Of a stretch of 64,000 nucleotides of DNA, positions 4,564-55,152 are shown one piece after another; the stretch's first letter is position 1; each line of letters starts with the position of its first letter. The notes beneath the pieces are model-generated. The model made no database searches. It was not told where the DNA came from and saw nothing but the letters and a program-made list of their open reading frames with translations. Source of the DNA: a virus (Duplodnaviria > Caudoviricetes); the IMG/VR virus record IMGVR_UViG_3300035499_000517, positions 32,001 through 96,000 of that record. One strand, given 5' to 3'. The position numbers were made by a program, and so were the translations under genes.

Positions 4564-4693
4564 ATATGAAGCATGTAGAAAAAGATAAATTGGACGGTCT
4601 TATTTTATATAAGAAATTATCAAAATCTCTACATAGCTTTAGTGCGAAATGTGCACGAATACTATATTATTATTTTTTAAGGAGGTACTTGAC

Positions 4694-11568: not shown

Positions 11569-11580
11569 AACAATTCATTA
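11569..11580 (+). promoter_or_regulatory. Late-type promoter motif AACA-N6-TA (second copy at 11633-11644)
   Basis: aacaattcatta and aacagataaata upstream of the capsid gene. Confidence 0.65.
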
Positions 11581-16124: not shown

Positions 16125-16179
16125 TTCAATAAATGGAGAGGTAGTTCATATCTCTCCATTTGTATTTCCTCAAATTTCA

Positions 16180-16193: not shown

Positions 16194-16298
16194 TCGTGAT
16201 GTAAGAGAAGAAAGATGAACTCTACATCAAAAAACTAAGGGTCAAAATTTATATGATCCTAAAACAAATTTATCACATTTCAAAGGAGGAAATGAATT

Positions 16299-16565
16299 AT
16301 GACACTCAAAACAGAATTAGCAGATAAGCAGACAGTAGAAAACGTACTTGTTCAATCACTCAACCTTATTACCGGGCTTGAAACTCATATAGTTGACTGG
16401 CCGACATTTAGGGATGCACTGTATCCTCAGTATGAGACAGCATATGAAATTACACAGGATAGAGTATCTTACGGGGATTACTTTAGTAAGTTTAGATTGA
16501 ATGATACTGCTAAGCAGTTCCTTGATCAGTACAATGCTTGTGATAAGCTTTACAACAATCGTTAA
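16299..16565 (+). CDS. Hypothetical early protein
   Basis: AAAGGAGG RBS; early motif upstream. Confidence 0.7.
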   Translation: MTLKTELADKQTVENVLVQSLNLITGLETHIVDWPTFRDALYPQYETAYEITQDRVSYGDYFSKFRLNDTAKQFLDQYNACDKLYNNR

Positions 16566-16608
16566 AAAAATGAATATACCAAAATGGTTAAAAAGGAGGA
16601 AATGAATT

Positions 16609-17100
16609 ATGAGTAACTTTTTCGGAACAATCGCAGCAGCTATTAGTGAGGGTATTGAGGAAGGTAGATTAGAAGCACAGAGAAGAGCGGCAGAGAAAGC
16701 TGAGTATCAGGCTCGTCTTGACAAGGTGACAGCTGAGATGGACGTTATCGTCAATGAGGGTGTTCGTCGCGGATTCATCAAGAGAAAAGCTGTAGCTTAT
16801 CACTTCTGTCCGGAGCTGAAGCGTCAGGAGTCTGAGCTTGTGCAGGAGAAGATTAAGAACTGCTATAAGGAGAGTAGCAATACCACTACTACTTCAACTC
16901 GTTCACAGTTTGATCTTCTGTTAAATCCGGATAGCAAGTACGAAGGTATGAAGTTCGCTACCGGAATTCAGGCAGACAACTTCATGGAGGGCCTTGGTTA
17001 TAAGGTTAAATCCTTTAGCTATCAGGTTCATCTGTATAGCAAGGGAACTGACACAGCTGTTGCTCAGAGAGAGGGCACCAACTATGTGCTTCATTTCTAA
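16609..17100 (+). CDS. Hypothetical early protein, paralog of 54853..55152
   Basis: Shared IVxEG..VAYH(F/Y)CPE(L/M)K..ELVQ motif. Confidence 0.75.
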   Translation: MSNFFGTIAAAISEGIEEGRLEAQRRAAEKAEYQARLDKVTAEMDVIVNEGVRRGFIKRKAVAYHFCPELKRQESELVQEKIKNCYKESSNTTTTSTRSQFDLLLNPDSKYEGMKFATGIQADNFMEGLGYKVKSFSYQVHLYSKGTDTAVAQREGTNYVLHF

Positions 17101-22421: not shown

Positions 22422-22426
22422 TTTCA

Positions 22427-22440
22427 TTTATATATTATCT
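22427..22440 (+). promoter_or_regulatory. Early-type phage promoter motif
   Basis: tttcatttatatattatct; part of a 33-bp exact repeat shared with 33170-33202. Confidence 0.72.
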
Positions 22441-22478
22441 TTCTAGTATCGATAAAAAGAAATGTAAAGAAAGGTGGT

Positions 22479-26214: not shown

Positions 26215-26264
26215 TAGAGAGAAGCAAGATGTCTTTACGATGTCTTGCTTCTTTTACACCCTTG

Positions 26265-26276
26265 GACATTAACTTA
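26265..26276 (+). promoter_or_regulatory. Late-type promoter motif GACA-N6-TA
   Basis: gacattaactta, after a terminator hairpin. Confidence 0.55.
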
Positions 26277-26294
26277 AAGAAAGGAGTGAGCATT

Positions 26295-27557
26295 ATGCAG
26301 CAGAATACTTCATATTTTGATTTAGACGAACACCGTCTGAATTATATGTCCGTAATGGCAAGTAGTGCGCATACTTATGGAAACTTGCTTGCAACAGTAC
26401 AGAAGTGGTTTCTGGATATTTTTCCGGATAACTTTTTTAAGACGATTCATGTAAGCTCAAGAATCGCCCATAAACAGATATTATCAACACCAACCCAATT
26501 CTTAAAGAAATCAAAACCAATGATTATCTTTCGTCCAAGAATTGATTACAACGAGGATACATTCTTAGGGAAAACGATGTTTGTTGAGAGAATGGGTGGA
26601 GGACCAATCAATAGTCAGTCTCCAGGAACTGTAGATTTGAATCCCTTCTTATTTGATCCAGAAAGGAATTTAGAGGTACAATTCTCTCAGACAAGAAGGA
26701 TTATGTACATGGATATTACGATGGTATTTTCTACACTAATCCAACAGCTTAATTATATGGATTTCTTAAGAACACAATTTGTTCCGGGGAGACCATTTGA
26801 TATTGATACACACTTGGAAGCATATTTACCAAATACTTTTATGGAAACGCTTGGAAATTTAGCAGGGGTTCCAGTACATCAGAAAGATGGGTCAGTTGGG
26901 GATTTCTTAGATTATTTGAATGGACATTCCTATTTCCCAGTTACTTATAAGCTTGCTGGAGAAACAGGAAAAGAAGAGTTCTATCGGTATTATCCGGCAA
27001 AGATTTTTACTATCTTACAGGATTTGGATAAGGATGATGGAGAATCAACGAATCAGGTAATGACATCATACCGAATTACCTTATCTCTCAAACTAGAGTT
27101 CTGGTCTCCGTCTATCACGTATCTTTTTTCTCCACATATCAAGGAAATACCGAAGATGGAGATTCCAACGGATTCCACATTGATTCCAATTTATGCAGAT
27201 ATTTTTGACTTTGATGATTTGGAGTTAAACCCTGGATGGAGTGTGTATTCACATGCATCTTATCGACTGGATAAACCAAACGATTCAGTTGATATCAAAC
27301 CGATCTTAAAGCAATCAATTATACAGGCGATCGATTATCACATTTCAAATCATATTCCGCTTGTAAACTTGATTGATATCAGGGTAAGAAAACAGGGAGA
27401 TTTATTGTTGGAAGGATCAGATTATTCCATTGATTATGAAAAGAAAGTGGTGCAGTTTTATAACCATGATTATGGTTATTACACATACACAATTGTGATT
27501 ACTGTTGATACTCAGTATATCAACCAGCTCATTAAAGATGTCTTTCATTTAGAGTGA
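26295..27557 (+). CDS. Putative virion structural protein
   Basis: AAGGAG RBS before ATG 26295; late motif upstream; beta-rich composition. Confidence 0.5.
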   Translation: MQQNTSYFDLDEHRLNYMSVMASSAHTYGNLLATVQKWFLDIFPDNFFKTIHVSSRIAHKQILSTPTQFLKKSKPMIIFRPRIDYNEDTFLGKTMFVERMGGGPINSQSPGTVDLNPFLFDPERNLEVQFSQTRRIMYMDITMVFSTLIQQLNYMDFLRTQFVPGRPFDIDTHLEAYLPNTFMETLGNLAGVPVHQKDGSVGDFLDYLNGHSYFPVTYKLAGETGKEEFYRYYPAKIFTILQDLDKDDGESTNQVMTSYRITLSLKLEFWSPSITYLFSPHIKEIPKMEIPTDSTLIPIYADIFDFDDLELNPGWSVYSHASYRLDKPNDSVDIKPILKQSIIQAIDYHISNHIPLVNLIDIRVRKQGDLLLEGSDYSIDYEKKVVQFYNHDYGYYTYTIVITVDTQYINQLIKDVFHLE

Positions 27558-27558
27558 C

Positions 27559-27601
27559 AAAAGAAAGAAGGTAGAGGTTTGCACATTCCTCTACCTTCTT
27601 C
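27559..27601. terminator. Bidirectional intrinsic terminator
   Basis: 13-bp perfect stem aagaaggtagagg/cctctaccttctt; the better U-tract is on the minus strand. Confidence 0.8.
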
Positions 27602-27817
27602 TAAGCCCGGTGCGCGAATTATAGCAAAAGATTCTATTTCACACGTTCAAAAAATTAACTGTTTAGGAGGGTTTTCATCATGAGTAATTAGGTTGTCCAA
27701 CAGGAGACAACTTTTCGGACACTTTACCATATCATGAATCATTCAAAAAACTACATGAAAAATCAATGTACCAGAGTCAAACTAACTAATACAAAAAGGA
27801 AATAAGCTCCGGGCTTT
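27602..27817 (-). ncRNA. Candidate late-expressed structured non-coding RNA (~215 nt plus terminator)
   Basis: AACA-N6-TA at 27828-27817; 5' AAGCCCGGAGC pairs with 3' GCACCGGGCUU; terminator immediately downstream; no plausible protein ORF. Confidence 0.65.
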
Positions 27818-27828
27818 AACTTTTTGTT
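27817..27828 (-). promoter_or_regulatory. Late-type promoter motif AACA-N6-TA driving the candidate ncRNA
   Basis: aacaaaaagtta on minus strand. Confidence 0.6.
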
Positions 27829-27849
27829 ATCGCTTTATATTTTAGGTAA

Positions 27850-27861
27850 AACTGAAAATTA
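27850..27861 (+). promoter_or_regulatory. Late-type motif variant AACT-N6-TA
   Basis: aactgaaaatta upstream of sbcC. Confidence 0.4.
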
Positions 27862-27888
27862 ACGAGGAATTAGAAAGGATTTGATTCG

Positions 27889-30471
27889 ATGTTTATAAGA
27901 GAAATTATCTTAGAAAACTTTCAGAATTTAAAGACTGGAATTGGAGTAAACAAATTAGAATTAGACTTCACAAAACAAAAGAATCCAGTCTGTATTATTA
28001 TTGGTCCAAACGGTGCAGGGAAAACGAGTCTATTAAGTTATTTGACTCCATTTGCTACCGTTGGAGATTTGGATATAAGAAATGCAACGAGACCCATCAT
28101 AAAAGGAAAGAATGGGTATAAGAAGATTGTATTGCTTGATGACGAACGAAATGAATACGTCATCGAGCATTTTTACACCCCAAAAAGCGATGGAGCATTT
28201 ATCATCAAGTCTTATTTTAAGATGAATGATGTGGAATTAAATGAGAATGGAAATGTCACATCATTTAAGGATTTGGTAGCAGAGCATCTGGATATTGAGA
28301 TGAGTTACTTAAAGCTCATAAGAATGGGTGATAATGTAAAGAATCTCATTACATCAAGAGGAGCAGAGAGAAAAGTCTTTGCTACGAAAATCTTAGAGGA
28401 AGTGGATTGGTACTTAAAGCAATATAAAGAAGCTTCTCAAAGAGAGAAAGATACAAAAGCAGTTATTGGTCATATCATTGATGAAATCAAAAAGACTTCT
28501 GTAGAAGATGAAAAGAAGTCTGAGATTGAGATTGCTGAGATGAATCAGGAGCTTGCTACATTAGATGCTGTAATTGCAAAAGTAAATGAAGAACTCACAC
28601 GATATAAATACGATTACGAGAAGTTAAATATCGGTGGAGATTTTCCATTTCTTTTAAAGGCAGCAACGAAACGAATAGAATCATTTACGAATGCATTAGA
28701 GATTGCAAAGGCAGAAAGTCTGGACTTAAAGAAAGCCAATAAGAAGTTGGAATCTTTATCCTTACTGGAAGTTGAATTACAAGGAAAAGTAAAAGCAGCT
28801 TCTGATGTCATTTCAAGAATCTTACAGGATATTGATAATGAGATGAATGAACTCGATGAAATCAAAGCTTCGATTAAGAAAGAAGAAAAGGATTTAAATC
28901 TGGAATCTTTAGAGAATTACTTTCATGATTTACGGAAACGTACAAATCATGCTTATCGAAGTGCTTTTGATGAGAGAACTGTCAACTGTTCAAAAGAAGA
29001 GTTTGATGAGTTCGTGGTATTCTTAAAGAATATCCAGTCACAGTTAAATCTCACTTATGACTTCGGCAAAGACCCGATTAAGAAAGTCTTAAAAGAGATG
29101 AAAGCAAATAACGATATTCCATCTCTTATCAAAGCTTCTTTACTTACAATTGAAGCACAGGAGAATGCAGAGCGATTATCATTAGTAGACAGGATTATCA
29201 ATCGTTATGCAGGAATTAAAATTACTTGTGAACAGGAATGTCCATTAAAGCAACTTCACAAAGAACTACTTGACATCAAAGATGCTGTTCCAGTTGCTTC
29301 TGTAAAATATACTTCTGAGTTTTATCATATGATGCAACTTGCTTATGATAACTTAACGAATGTCTTTTCTCAGCTCAATGAGAAAGCGGAGTTTATTCAG
29401 AAGCTTCCTGAAGACATTCAGAAATTCTTCCTTGTAGATAATCTTTACAAGAAGATTGGAAATGCAGAATGCATCTTCGATGATAAACTTATCAATGATT
29501 ACATTTCTTTCTTGACAGAACGAGAAAATTATAATCAGTTGAAGAAAGAATGTGATGAGGTTGAAAAAGATCTCATTAAAATGAAAGCATTGAGTAAGAT
29601 GGAGTTTTTGACAAAGCAACGAGATAAGATCTCTTCTCATATAGAAAAGCTCCAAGAAGAACTCGAAGATGAGAAAGCTTCAAAAGAAGCAGTAGAAGAT
29701 GAACTTCGTAGTTGTAGATCTGATATCACTTCGGTTCGGACTATTTCTGAAGCTCTTACTGAATATGATGAAGCAAAAACAAATTATGAGGATATCACAA
29801 AACGTGATGAAGAAGGTAAGAAATTATCTTCAAGAATAGGGGATTTAGACTCTCAATTGAATGAGTTTAATCAGCGTCGTTATTTGTTATCCCTAGACGT
29901 GTCCAGCAAAGAGTCAAAACTTAAAAGATATCGTGATTTAGTAACTCAATTAGAGGATTATCGCTTGCTTTATGAAGACTATTCGAACTTAAAGTTCGCT
30001 TTATCGGGAACAACAGGTATTCCACTTGAACATATCCGAGCATACTTTAAGAAAGTCACAAAGATTGCAAATGAACTTCTTGATATTGTCTATCATGGAG
30101 ATTTATATCTTGATAAGTTTGAGATTACTGAGAATGATTTCTTGATGCCTTACGTGAAAAATGGAGTTCGTATCGATGATGTCTCTTCTGCTTCGCAGGG
30201 AGAAGCCAGCTTCTTTAATATGGCGATCTCTTCTGCACTTCGAGCAATGAGTATGTCACGTTATAATGTAGGACTCTATGATGAAGTAGATTCCATGTTT
30301 GATGATAAAAACCGACAAAGATTTATTCCTGTCTTAGAGAAACAGATGGAGCTTAATAACATCAGACAGGCATTCTTAATTACACACAACATGATGTTTC
30401 GTCAGTATCCAGTTGATATTATTAACATGGAAGACTTAGATAAATCCACTATTGGTGTAAAATACGAGTAA
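27889..30471 (+). CDS. sbcC: SbcC/Rad50-like SMC ATPase
   Basis: Walker A GPNGAGKTS; long coiled coil with CEQECP hook; signature ASQGE; Walker B LYDEVD; LITH. Confidence 0.9.
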   Translation: MFIREIILENFQNLKTGIGVNKLELDFTKQKNPVCIIIGPNGAGKTSLLSYLTPFATVGDLDIRNATRPIIKGKNGYKKIVLLDDERNEYVIEHFYTPKSDGAFIIKSYFKMNDVELNENGNVTSFKDLVAEHLDIEMSYLKLIRMGDNVKNLITSRGAERKVFATKILEEVDWYLKQYKEASQREKDTKAVIGHIIDEIKKTSVEDEKKSEIEIAEMNQELATLDAVIAKVNEELTRYKYDYEKLNIGGDFPFLLKAATKRIESFTNALEIAKAESLDLKKANKKLESLSLLEVELQGKVKAASDVISRILQDIDNEMNELDEIKASIKKEEKDLNLESLENYFHDLRKRTNHAYRSAFDERTVNCSKEEFDEFVVFLKNIQSQLNLTYDFGKDPIKKVLKEMKANNDIPSLIKASLLTIEAQENAERLSLVDRIINRYAGIKITCEQECPLKQLHKELLDIKDAVPVASVKYTSEFYHMMQLAYDNLTNVFSQLNEKAEFIQKLPEDIQKFFLVDNLYKKIGNAECIFDDKLINDYISFLTERENYNQLKKECDEVEKDLIKMKALSKMEFLTKQRDKISSHIEKLQEELEDEKASKEAVEDELRSCRSDITSVRTISEALTEYDEAKTNYEDITKRDEEGKKLSSRIGDLDSQLNEFNQRRYLLSLDVSSKESKLKRYRDLVTQLEDYRLLYEDYSNLKFALSGTTGIPLEHIRAYFKKVTKIANELLDIVYHGDLYLDKFEITENDFLMPYVKNGVRIDDVSSASQGEASFFNMAISSALRAMSMSRYNVGLYDEVDSMFDDKNRQRFIPVLEKQMELNNIRQAFLITHNMMFRQYPVDIINMEDLDKSTIGVKYE

Positions 30472-30651: not shown

Positions 30652-32599
30652 ATGGCACATGTAGTACGAACAGAAGTCATTAATTTGAAAAATGAATATG
30701 TCGTGGCTGACCAAGTCTCATGGGATCGATTATTCTATGATGACATTATGAACCATGATGGATTTGTTATTTCAGAACCTGCCGTCTTATCATTAGATGG
30801 TAGAAAAGAGAAAAATATGTTTGGACCAAACTCTCCACTGTTTGGAACCACTTATGGTGACGAGCAGGCATTTATGGAAAGGCATAGATGTAAATGTGGA
30901 GAATTTAAAGGACTACGTTTCAAAGGTGAAATTTGCCCTTTCTGTGGTACAAAGGTAGAAGCCAGAGATATGGATATCAAAAAGACTGGCTGGATTAGTT
31001 TGGGTGATAATGTTTTAATTAGCCCTTACTGGTATAAGATATTTGAAAGAACCATTGGGAAGAAACCATTTGCAGAGATGGTGGAAAGAATCGAAAGAGT
31101 TGATGCTGATGGTAATCGTCATGAGGTCGCTTATGATGAGGATCATCCACCATCATCTCCATTTGCTGGAATAGGAATCGACGGGTTTTACGAAAGATAT
31201 GATGAGATACTCGATTACTTTGCAGCAAAGAAAAAAGATAAGAGGGAACAACTGAATCAGGCAAAGCGTTGTAAATACAAAGCTTTCATTCATCATATTC
31301 CTGTATATTCGACTTTCTTAAGACCATCATCGGTTACAGCTGATACATTCTATTTCAATGGTATTGATAAAGAGATAAATACATTGGTTAACTTATCTAT
31401 GACGCTCAGGGATTGTGAGCCCATAGAGAAACCCTTTATTCAAACACATATGCAGACTAGACTGCAAACCATGTGGGAGTTGAACTTCAACCAAGTCTCG
31501 CAAAAGAAGGGATTTATACGTAATAAGATCATATCAGGTTCCCTAAATTATACGAGTCGCTCAGTCATAACGCCGGATCCAACACTTGCTGTAGATCAGG
31601 TAGACATGAGTTATCAGGGATTTCGTATCTTATTTAAATATAAGATTATTTACTACTTGATGAAAATACTTAATATATCGCTCTCTGATGCCTACATGAT
31701 GTGGAAAGATGCATATAAGAAAGACGATTACGTTCTTTCTATTATGAATTATATAGTAAAGAAAGAAAAACCGAGGATTTTATTAAATAGAAATCCTACA
31801 ATCAATCTGTATTCAATGCTTATGTTAAGAATACGCCGGGTGAAGGACGATTGGAAGAGGACAACGTTGTCTGTTCCTTTATTTATTTTAGCCGGTTTGA
31901 ATGCCGATCAACGAATCACCGCAAGGTCGGGACGTGTGGTAACACATAGTCGAGAAGTACGTGAACGTTTAACAAACGGTGTTAATCATTCATTAAGAAT
32001 GGTTAGCTAACGGTAGAAGTTAAATAAGACTGTTTATATGATAATTATAGACCGTATATAGGAAGTCCTATATATCGACCATAGACGAATGAGCTTCGTA
32101 AGAGAGCCTGGGTCCAAGAAATTGGATAGCCTGGTAATACCGTGCCAAGCTTTAGTAATAAAGAAGGTGTAGAGACTATTTATGTAGGGCTTAGTTTGAG
32201 GGCTAAGTTCGAAGCGCGTACCTCCTAGAATAATCTAGGATGAAGATATAGTCCGTGTTATAATGTGGAAATAGCACATTTGATGGTGATATCTTGAATC
32301 AGATTGCATTAGTTCAACCAGAATTCGTAAAGATGTTTAGAAAGTTTAGTCCAATGGAGAAATACATCATGAACCGTGAAGATGGATCTCTCAACAAACT
32401 CTTTGCAGTTGGTAAGGGACAGCTTATCGATTTCTATCACTTCTCAACCTTTAAGAATGAAGAAGGTCTTGAAGAGATGGATGAAGAGAAACTTTGGGCT
32501 TATATCAAACAGACTGAGAAGGAAAGTACCAGAAAGGTCATTTATATGCCGAATGGTGAAATCCGTAAAGTTTATCCAGAAGATCTGGTCGTTAAATAA
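30652..32599 (+). CDS. Phage multisubunit RNA polymerase beta'-like (N-terminal) subunit; join(30652..31908,32279..32599), 525 aa
   Basis: Zn-finger RCKCG..ICPFCG; SRSVITPD; LLNRNPTI; catalytic LNAD|FDGD reconstituted only after removing 31909-32278; early motif upstream suggests the non-virion RNAP. Confidence 0.9.
31909..32278 (+). mobile_element. Group I intron (370 nt, no homing endonuclease) in the RNAP catalytic motif
   Basis: P1 CCGAU/GUCGG with U.G at the 5' splice site; P3 GUACGUG/CGCGUAC; P4 ACGGUA/UACCGU; R GUAGAGACUA and S AAGAUAUAGUCC (P7); P8 CCUAGA/UCUAGG; P9 GUGUUAU/AUAGCAC; P10 with the 3' exon. Confidence 0.92.
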
Positions 32600-49556: not shown

Positions 49557-49671
49557 ATGTGAATAGATAAATGGTTAATAGATAGATAATGGATATGTTT
49601 TTTCTCCTTATAAATTAGGATGCTTTCTATTACTATGACTTAATCGAAAGAGAAGAAAGGAAGGACTTAAT

Positions 49672-50132: not shown

Positions 50133-50156
50133 TTGCTATAAGCAATATTAATTTTA

Positions 50157-50170
50157 CTTATATATTATCT
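50157..50170 (+). promoter_or_regulatory. Early-type phage promoter motif
   Basis: attttacttatatattatct. Confidence 0.7.
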
Positions 50171-54712: not shown

Positions 54713-54742
54713 CCTTCAGGATTTGAATTTTAGTAAATTTCA

Positions 54743-54756
54743 CTTATATAATATCT
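54743..54756 (+). promoter_or_regulatory. Early-type phage promoter motif
   Basis: atttcacttatataatatct. Confidence 0.72.
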
Positions 54757-54852
54757 AGGTGTAGATTACAAATAAAACATAACCAACTTTAAAAACTAAG
54801 GATTCATTAAAATGAATCCCAAATCAAATCATTCCAAGGAGGAAAAAAAGTC

Positions 54853-55152
54853 ATGAGTAAATTTGGAGAATTTGTAAGCAAGGCAATGGAAGATCACAGA
54901 GCAAGAAAGGCAGCAAAGGAAGCAGCACGGGCAGCATACAAGGCAGCAAAGGATAATTATCTGGAGCGTTTAGATGCAGCATTCCGTACAATCCAGCCAA
55001 TTGTTGATGAAGGCTTACAGAAGAAGTACATCTCACGGGAAACGGTGGCGTATCACTACTGTCCGGAAATGAAGCATATCAAGGATGCGTATGATCGTAT
55101 CAAGCGTGAAGAGTTAGTACAGAAGAGTCAGAAGCTCTTTGAGACAAAGTAG
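54853..55152 (+). CDS. Hypothetical early protein, paralog of 16609..17100
   Basis: VAYHYCPEMK motif; AAGGAGG RBS. Confidence 0.75.
   Translation: MSKFGEFVSKAMEDHRARKAAKEAARAAYKAAKDNYLERLDAAFRTIQPIVDEGLQKKYISRETVAYHYCPEMKHIKDAYDRIKREELVQKSQKLFETK

Follow-up and report, generated by a model that had tools for sequence, protein, structure and literature searches.

The 331-bp gap between two plus-strand genes of an uncultured phage (positions 27558-27888 of the window, that is, of the whole 64,000-nt stretch of DNA analyzed here) raises two questions: whether the gap holds an RNA gene of its own on the minus strand, and, if it does, how such an RNA would act. The gap separates a gene for a 442-aa protein (26229-27557, plus strand) from sbcC (27889-30471, plus strand), the product of which is annotated as "SbcC-like" by PHROG.

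The window belongs to an uncultured gut phage, an AR9-like jumbo phage as judged from its sequence. Among cultured phages, its SbcC matched only those of the AR9/PBS1 group, Listeria phage LPJP1, Staphylococcus jumbo phages and Yersinia phage phiR1-37, with identities of 30-38%. The window carries a split RNA polymerase (RNAP) gene, the gene after sbcC encodes a fragment of a multisubunit RNAP, and the window's own contig is 257,734 bp long. Neither the gap DNA nor the protein of the upstream gene gave a match in cultured phages. The 442-aa protein also showed no Pfam or PDB match, and the Atlas search returned only viral hypothetical proteins. Its start is probably Met23 (window 26229-26295); the relatives are 416-425 aa long and the Atlas protein begins at residue 23.

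The features of the locus, in the order of the predicted RNA, are as follows (window coordinates).

27829 to 27888, plus strand: leader of sbcC, with the ribosome-binding site (RBS) AAAGGA and a weak early-promoter-like sequence TTTATATTTTAGG, back to back with the late promoter
27817 to 27828, minus strand: late promoter motif AACAAAAAGTTA (AACA-N6-TA), matching the AR9 late-promoter consensus
27817, minus strand: predicted +1, the last A of AACAAAAAGTTA, by the AR9 start-site rule (PMC5312081)
27602 to 27817, minus strand: predicted RNA body, 216 nt, 35% G+C
27806 to 27816, minus strand: 5' strand of the closing helix P1, AAGCCCGGAGC, RNA nt 2-12
27711 to 27722, minus strand: conserved block GUGUCCGAAAAG, with GUCCG in hairpin loops whose stems differ among relatives
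27702 to 27706, minus strand: second C-rich motif, CUCCU, RNA nt 112-116, resembling the 5' end of an AR9 late RNA, UGUCCUCCUGU
27678 to 27688, minus strand: AUUACUCAUGA, RNA nt 130-140, with complementarity to AUGAGUAA around the start codons of two small genes
27666 to 27670, minus strand: CCUCC, anti-Shine-Dalgarno-like, RNA nt 148-152, context AAAACCCUCCUAAAC, P(unpaired) 0.87
27640 to 27655, minus strand: conserved block AUUUUUUGAACGUGUG, 16 of 16 nt identical in relative L013 (SbcC 46% identical)
27603 to 27613, minus strand: 3' strand of P1, GCACCGGGCUU, RNA nt 205-215
27558 to 27601, minus strand: predicted intrinsic terminator, a 14-bp hairpin (27601-27564) and the tail CUUUUG, -20.5 kcal/mol

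The late promoter of AR9 was mapped as AACA-(6N)-TA/G, the last base being the start site (PMC5312081). The AACA-N6-TA motif that a sequence-only reading of this DNA had placed at 27828-27817 on the minus strand is present there as AACAAAAAGTTA, 61 nt from the ATG of sbcC. Within the window the motif by itself is not significant; its placement is. It occurs 27 times against 45 expected, all 100 shuffles giving higher counts. Seven of the nine intergenic copies of the TA type lie 20-47 nt ahead of ORFs, and the genes preceded in this way include those of the major head protein (11672) and of a virion protein (48116). Only the copies at 27817 (minus strand) and 11580 (plus strand) have no ORF start within 50 nt, and from the copy at 11580 it is 92 nt to the gene of that same head protein. 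The complete relative G001 (255 kb) has 40 intergenic motifs, of which 24 are within 60 nt of an ORF. The RNA in the gap is probably expressed late, as its promoter motif suggests.

Two further observations concern promoter usage in the window. The scarcity of AACA-N6-TA is consistent with selection against stray late promoters. Upstream of non-structural genes we found another motif, approximately ACTTATATA(T/A)TATCTAT, which resembles the early element of AR9 and is likely to be an early promoter of the virion RNAP; its approximate sites are 1690-1715, 4660-4685, 16130-16150, 22425-22445, 49640-49665, 50145-50170 and 54740-54765. The sequence TTTATATTTTAGG in the sbcC leader can be called early-promoter-like only weakly, since it matches the early motif of the window, ACTTATATATTATCTAT, in part.

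The ends of the predicted RNA pair with each other. The sequence-only reading had described a GC-rich stem of the RNA ends at the predicted +1 with 10 of 11 pairs, and this was confirmed: AAGCCCGGAGC and GCACCGGGCUU form an 11-position closing helix, P1, with 10 positions paired, and the predicted +1 is one base ahead of it. The P1 duplex has an energy of -19.0 kcal/mol, against a mean of -8.7 kcal/mol for shuffled sequences, and its two strands enclose an AT-rich interior of 190 nt. The terminator directly follows the closing stem, as had been noted, but its hairpin has 14 bp and not 13. Its U-rich tail, which extends to 27558, adjoins the TGA stop codon (27555-27557) of the convergent 442-aa gene. 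By the criterion for a cis-antisense RNA, overlap with a gene on the opposite strand, none was found, as the RNA with its terminator ends one base past this stop codon.

The internal stems named in the same reading are all present in the window sequence. The nested model built from them has an energy of -40.8 kcal/mol, which is 5.4 kcal/mol above the minimum-free-energy (MFE) structure at -46.2 kcal/mol. In every model (the MFE and both constrained ones), P1 was formed and CCUCC was unpaired. The fold energy was below that of shuffled sequences on both strands (z of -4.1 and -4.8).

Whether this arrangement is a property of the window or of a family was examined in relatives. About 120 metagenomic relatives of SbcC were listed, and the genomic context was taken for 13 distinct lineages, in which SbcC is 43-59% identical to that of the window. 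More distant SbcC lineages were drawn from IMG/VR, where a single-protein scan gave no match and alignment-based scans did give relatives. In each of the 13 lineages at or above 43% SbcC identity, a gap of 250-410 bp precedes sbcC, the minus strand carries AACA-N6-T[AT] at 63-92 nt from the ATG of sbcC, the interior of 101-310 nt has no conserved ORF, and a strong hairpin terminator lies just ahead of the stop codon of a conserved 416-442-aa gene. The duplex of the 5' and 3' ends, computed from the 28 nt that follow +1 and the 32 nt that precede the terminator, amounts to -16 to -22 kcal/mol in each lineage and starts 1-3 nt after +1.

The sequences of the closing helices are unrelated across lineages (for example, GCGCUCGGG/CCCGAGCGC, UUCCAUAAGAGU/ACUCUUGUGGAA and CCAUUGCG/CGCAAUGG). 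Cognate ends nevertheless paired with a mean of -18.2 kcal/mol, against -8.8 kcal/mol for non-cognate ends (Mann-Whitney p = 1e-9), and the best partner was the cognate 3' end in 11 of 14 rows. The closing helices covary as whole helices. The closing stem, the retention of which in relatives had been named as a test of the proposal, is kept through complete sequence turnover, and the syntenic intervals upstream of sbcC carry the late-promoter motif 1-3 nt before it in every lineage with SbcC identity of at least 43%.

At the near end of the series, the RNAs of L001 and L002 are identical to that of the window. The internal stems of the window RNA are without covariation support, because, among the relatives whose RNA sequence differs, even the nearest has an SbcC of only 59% identity. 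At the far end, four lineages with SbcC 29-36% identical (L029, L030, L031 and the sister pair L043/44) keep the promoter and the terminator and lack a strong clamp; a C-rich motif is present in L029, L031 and L043/44 and absent from L030. Before sbcC of L022 (37%) and of many phages at 30% or below, no such unit was found, and in AR9 and LPJP1 there is no gap before sbcC. Two separate observations were made among the distant IMG/VR relatives. In L053 (1250-1400, minus strand), an apparent tRNA gene, cloverleaf-like by eye, stands before sbcC. In the sister phages L043 and L044 (1190-1230 in each, minus strand), the loop of a long hairpin is inverted, CCACAAGGAGGGACAAGUUCCUCCUUGUGG versus CCACAAGGAACUUGUCCCUCCUUGUGG, and this flip alters the pairing state of CCUCC.

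For the internal structure, a global MAFFT alignment of all clade-A RNAs and the window RNA (A3) was poor, and the only usable alignment (A4) covers one subclade with eight sequences from about four lineages. A4 supports eight helices: 97.2% of the cells pair, against 33-44% with the partners slid, and compensatory changes appear in 17 pairs, compared with 1-6 in the slid controls. The covariation score was 0.416 versus 0.188 for shuffled alignments, and none of 500 shuffles scored as high. Covariation in syntenic relatives, which the sequence-only reading had proposed as a check, was found in this subclade, outside the window's own lineage. By manual tally, G-U cells occur in 13 of the A4 pair columns and A-C cells in two. 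This asymmetry, together with the promoter, favors the minus strand as the strand of the RNA. The terminator is not decisive in this respect, since in several relatives there are T-runs on both sides of the hairpin, which can serve both strands.

These results bear on an interpretation in which the gap gives no stable RNA at all and consists of a terminator for the upstream gene and a DNA-level element (an origin, or a spacer with divergent promoters), with an AACA motif present by chance. The motif is indeed not enriched in the window, the terminator of several relatives can serve both strands, and the helices form on both strands. Against this, 13 lineages keep the motif at an equal distance from the base of the helix, G-U cells are far commoner than A-C cells, CCUCC is present and GGAGG absent in the RNAs (see below), and AR9 shows strong transcription of such an ORF-less late unit, as far as Table S3 part 1 of the AR9 study lists it. 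We consider it very unlikely that no stable RNA is made.

That the gap codes for a small protein seems hardly credible. The absence of a protein ORF noted in the sequence-only reading was borne out: the sole ORF of at least 18 aa on the RNA strand has 31 aa (27742-27647), has no Shine-Dalgarno (SD) sequence and is not conserved, and no conserved ORF was found on either strand in the window or the relatives. Apart from this 31-aa ORF, a coding role could appeal to ORFs of 40-76 aa in some relatives. The relatives' ORFs of at least 18 aa, however, share no common sequence and nearly all are without an SD sequence, and L014 and L021 have no ORF of this size. In addition, a 1-nt indel in the block GUGUCCG(G)AAAAG shifts the reading frame between the window and L003.

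Searches for known RNA classes were negative as well. ARAGORN found neither a tRNA nor a tmRNA in the window, in agreement with the lack of a tRNA fold noted before. The view that the RNA belongs to no known family also held: Rfam 15 gave no match at the gathering score for the window and the loci of the 13 relatives, including none to 6S RNA, pRNA, Y RNA or RsaE/RoxS, and at E-values up to 10 it gave just terminator-hairpin and snoRNA/miRNA noise far below threshold. The gathering-score search of the window likewise gave no intron family, including at 31900-32375 in the RNAP gene. 6S RNA is a rod-like fold with a central bubble that resembles an open promoter; the relatives' consensus is multi-branched, with eight helices. 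The pRNA of phage phi29 is a phage-encoded structured RNA of about 170 nt, the 5' and 3' ends of which pair. The window RNA shares with it a helix of the 5' and 3' ends; pRNA, by contrast, is made early and has no CCUCC, and there was no Rfam match between them.

Two more specific ideas were set aside. Loop-loop pairing of GUCC with GGAC, as in pRNA, had no support from covariation: the two could pair, but the motifs never vary and the GG is inside the covarying P2 stem of clade A. A mimic of the template-strand element of the non-virion RNAP (nvRNAP), suggested by UGUU in the P2 loop, was dismissed because UGUU is not conserved.

Small RNAs have been mapped in the Pseudomonas jumbo phages phiKZ and 201phi2-1, most of them derived from 5' UTRs (PMC11512511). 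Like the window RNA, they are small units, positionally conserved among related phages and without an assigned function; unlike it, they have different promoters, and none was reported beside sbcC or with an anti-SD motif (PMC11512511).

The relation of the window RNA to its relatives was analyzed further. Members of clade A are about 250-310 nt long and have at least eight covarying helices and the conserved loops ACUNUUUGAA and UGUCCGG. The window RNA has blocks in common with several relatives in the same orientation: AAAGUGUCCG with L003, GUGUCCGAAAA with L019, AUUUUUUGAACGUGUG (16 nt) with L013 and CCUCCUAAAC with L021. Shared 8-mers numbered 43 in the sense and 20 in the antisense orientation, and shuffled sequences gave a mean of 14 and a maximum of 34. 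The shared blocks form a mosaic. On the basis of these blocks, the identical position and the common architecture, we treat the window RNA as a member of the family.

Paralogues of the sbcC-adjacent RNA were considered and rejected, since no other late ORF-less unit of the complete relative G001 combines a closing helix with CCUCC. Four short ORF-less units with a late motif and a terminator within 57-115 nt were seen elsewhere in G001 (L086-L098), at 138617 (minus), 183109 (minus), 7020 (plus) and 83805 (plus). These may be additional small RNAs or leaders, and all four lack both a closing helix and CCUCC.

The gene, the promoter motif, the closing helix, the terminator and the CCUCC motif are conserved here. 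By these features, the uncultured AR9-like jumbo phages have a structured RNA family that is both new and conserved, and the RNA gene is very probably real. The proposal of a dedicated late small RNA outside known families thus appears sound, being supported by the conserved promoter, the closing stem and the negative Rfam search.

What, then, might such an RNA do? One conserved sequence element is CCUCC, the core of the anti-Shine-Dalgarno sequence: 12 of the 14 lineages carry it, where 0.94 would be expected, and 2000 mononucleotide shuffles gave five at most. The two lineages without it carry CCUCU or CUCCU, and GGAGG is found in the RNAs of none of the 14. CCUCC is mostly predicted to be unpaired, with probabilities mostly of 0.8-1.0. 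It stands in hairpin loops on different stems in L010 (UUUGC/GCAAA) and L023 (UUUAUUGCA/UGCAAUAAG), and in the subclade consensus it stands in a single-stranded joint just 5' of helix 7. In the window, the second C-rich motif, CUCCU, is at the loop of GUUGUC/GACAAC or of UGUCCGA/UUGGACA, which are alternative stems. A second motif of the family, GUCCG(G), is found in hairpin loops on six different stems.

An unpaired CCUCC suggests pairing with Shine-Dalgarno regions of mRNAs. For the window RNA, nt 122-159 show complementarity to the SD sequence and AUG of the genes 54853-55152 and 16609-17100, both of which are downstream of early-type promoters. The RNA segment UUACUCAUGA-N-CCUCC would pair with GGAGG-N-UCAUGAGUAA of the mRNA. 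These genes are the best and second-best sites in the window, and flank-shuffled seeds did as well in 1.0% and 0.3% of cases, respectively. Homologues of both candidate targets are absent from the records of five relatives, including the complete G001, where 7% of controls did as well as the best predicted site and 0.8% as well as the second. The complementarity of AUUACUCAUGA, which is also the 3' strand of the UCAUGA/GUAA stems of the sequence-only reading, is lineage-specific and no trait of the family. Likewise, the window, L005 and L016 alone have an anti-AUG arm (CAU 7-10 nt 5' of CCUCC). For the leader of sbcC, no conserved pairing with the RNA was found across lineages. A bare CCUCC seed would not discriminate between mRNAs, since GGAGG is used by late genes as well. 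The seed idea as such is plausible, but a good deal of this evidence speaks against a specific target, and the two genes are candidates only. As a separate point, the leaders of the adjacent small genes 16299 and 16609 are near-identical (AAGGAGGAAAUGAAUUAUGA; 16270-16300 and 16580-16610), which suggests a local duplication.

The neighboring sbcC offers a different explanation, namely that the unit acts in cis: late minus-strand transcription would occlude the sbcC promoter, or the RNA would pair perfectly with transcripts that read through from the upstream gene into sbcC, and sbcC would be switched off late. The adjacency to sbcC is kept in 13 of 13 lineages with at least 43% identity and in four of the more distant ones examined. 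The late promoter abuts the weak early-like motif on the plus strand, and, in the window, a clear plus-strand T-run is missing from the hairpin that follows the upstream gene, so that read-through is possible. Action in cis, however, needs no conserved fold, closing helix or CCUCC, all of which are kept despite the sequence turnover. The RNA overlaps no annotated gene. Moreover, AR9 and LPJP1 have no gap before sbcC, and the CCUCC RNA of AR9 is located elsewhere. An action in cis is improbable in our judgment.

The RNA may also be real and yet not act by pairing with mRNAs. It could be a protein-binding RNA, a scaffold or a decoy, either a mimic of the 16S rRNA 3' tail or the RNA of a phage ribonucleoprotein. 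The size of the clade-A members, their eight or more covarying helices and their conserved loops exceed what an sRNA made of a seed and a terminator needs. No specific mRNA target is conserved, and CCUCC contexts such as GCACCUCCU and GAUCCUCC resemble the 3' tail of 16S rRNA. On the other hand, no partner protein is indicated, the neighboring 442-aa protein having no Pfam or PDB relative, and there was no match to 6S RNA, pRNA, Y RNA or another Rfam family. The small members (L021 with 101 nt, L031 with 92 nt and the AR9 RNA with about 70 nt) keep little but the C-rich motif and a hairpin. We regard a scaffold or decoy role as rather unlikely.

The explanation that we prefer is pairing in trans. 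The locus would be a single-copy ncRNA gene on the minus strand, made up of about 216 nt and a terminator and running from 27817 to about 27560, which the non-virion RNAP of the phage would transcribe late from the AR9-type promoter. The 5' and 3' ends would form a clamp helix that leaves CCUCC and/or CUCCU unpaired. The RNA would then most likely act in trans, in the manner of the C-rich base-pairing sRNAs of Gram-positive bacteria: the exposed CCUCC and its lineage-specific flanks would pair at the ribosome-binding regions of mRNAs, either of the host or of the phage (in the latter case probably early ones), and block the initiation of translation late in infection. RoxS pairs with G-rich target sites through C-rich regions (PMC5419742). 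RsaE/RoxS of the Firmicutes and the window RNA have in common unpaired C-rich motifs able to pair with G-rich SD regions. They differ in that Rfam detected no match of sequence or structure, and in that the window RNA is phage-encoded and larger, has a clamp of the 5' and 3' ends, and would use a phage polymerase. The explanation as a whole, a late ncRNA gene with a clamp and anti-SD pairing in trans, falls a little short of even likelihood in our estimation, and its central step, an anti-SD base-pairing mechanism that blocks translation late in infection, is put forward tentatively, as somewhat more likely wrong than right.

A unit of a comparable kind exists in the cultured phage AR9. Lavysh et al. 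2017 (PMC5312081, Table S3) mapped a late start to position 75478 on the minus strand and labeled it "antisense to g090". No other late start in part 1 of that table reaches its step height of 3757, the next being 3550 (PMC5312081), and the article gives the RNA only this label, with no description as an sRNA. In the AR9 genome (KU878088.1, 75397-75478, minus strand; L099:1098-1179), this start gives an ORF-less RNA of about 70 nt that lies wholly in the gap between g090 and g091. The unit has the sequence AACATATTAATA, the last A being +1, and the promoter aaacatattaatA. The RNA begins with AAUGUCCUCCUG / AAUGUCCUCCUGU, reads AAUGUCCUCCUGUAAUUUUAAUAG, and continues into a 16-bp hairpin and a U-rich tail. 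The mapped start, as given in that part of the table, and the sequence together point to strong late transcription, in AR9, of a unit that has no ORF and bears an exposed CCUCC at the 5' end.

The AR9 75478 RNA and the window RNA have in common an AR9-type late promoter, the lack of an ORF, an intergenic position, an exposed CCUCC and a strong terminator hairpin. The orientation in the gap is also the same: the unit converges on the upstream gene and diverges from the downstream gene. The AR9 sequence AAUGUCCUCCUGU resembles the second C-rich site of the window RNA, UUGUCUCCUGU, in a likeness that does not imply homology. In contrast to the window RNA, the AR9 RNA is only about 70 nt long, consists of a 5' single-stranded seed and one hairpin without a closing helix, and adjoins the gene of the nvRNAP beta subunit instead of sbcC. 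As a class, late anti-SD RNAs of AR9-like phages have transcript-level support in a cultured phage, through the start listed in part 1 of Table S3.

A broader and rather doubtful idea is that abundant late RNAs of AR9-like phages, whether cultured or not, present a copy of the anti-SD sequence of 16S rRNA as a general device, occupying the ribosome-binding sites of early phage and host mRNAs or sequestering a factor by which the 16S tail is read. It would then be RNA and not protein that reprograms late translation, and the sbcC-adjacent RNA would be an elaborated, clamp-closed form of the minimal AR9 75478 RNA.

To our knowledge, the regulatory RNAs of jumbo phages have barely been explored, and none has a known function. 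The present analysis adds an RNA family defined by its position, its covarying structure and a motif that suggests a testable mechanism. It has a likely counterpart in AR9 and Bacillus subtilis, where the strongest late start in the published dRNA-seq data, as ranked in part 1 of Table S3, was published without a description as an sRNA. The new family would aid RNA databases in annotating gut phage genomes. If the proposed mechanism is true, phages with their own RNA polymerases would time not only transcription but also translation, and would do the latter by means of RNA.
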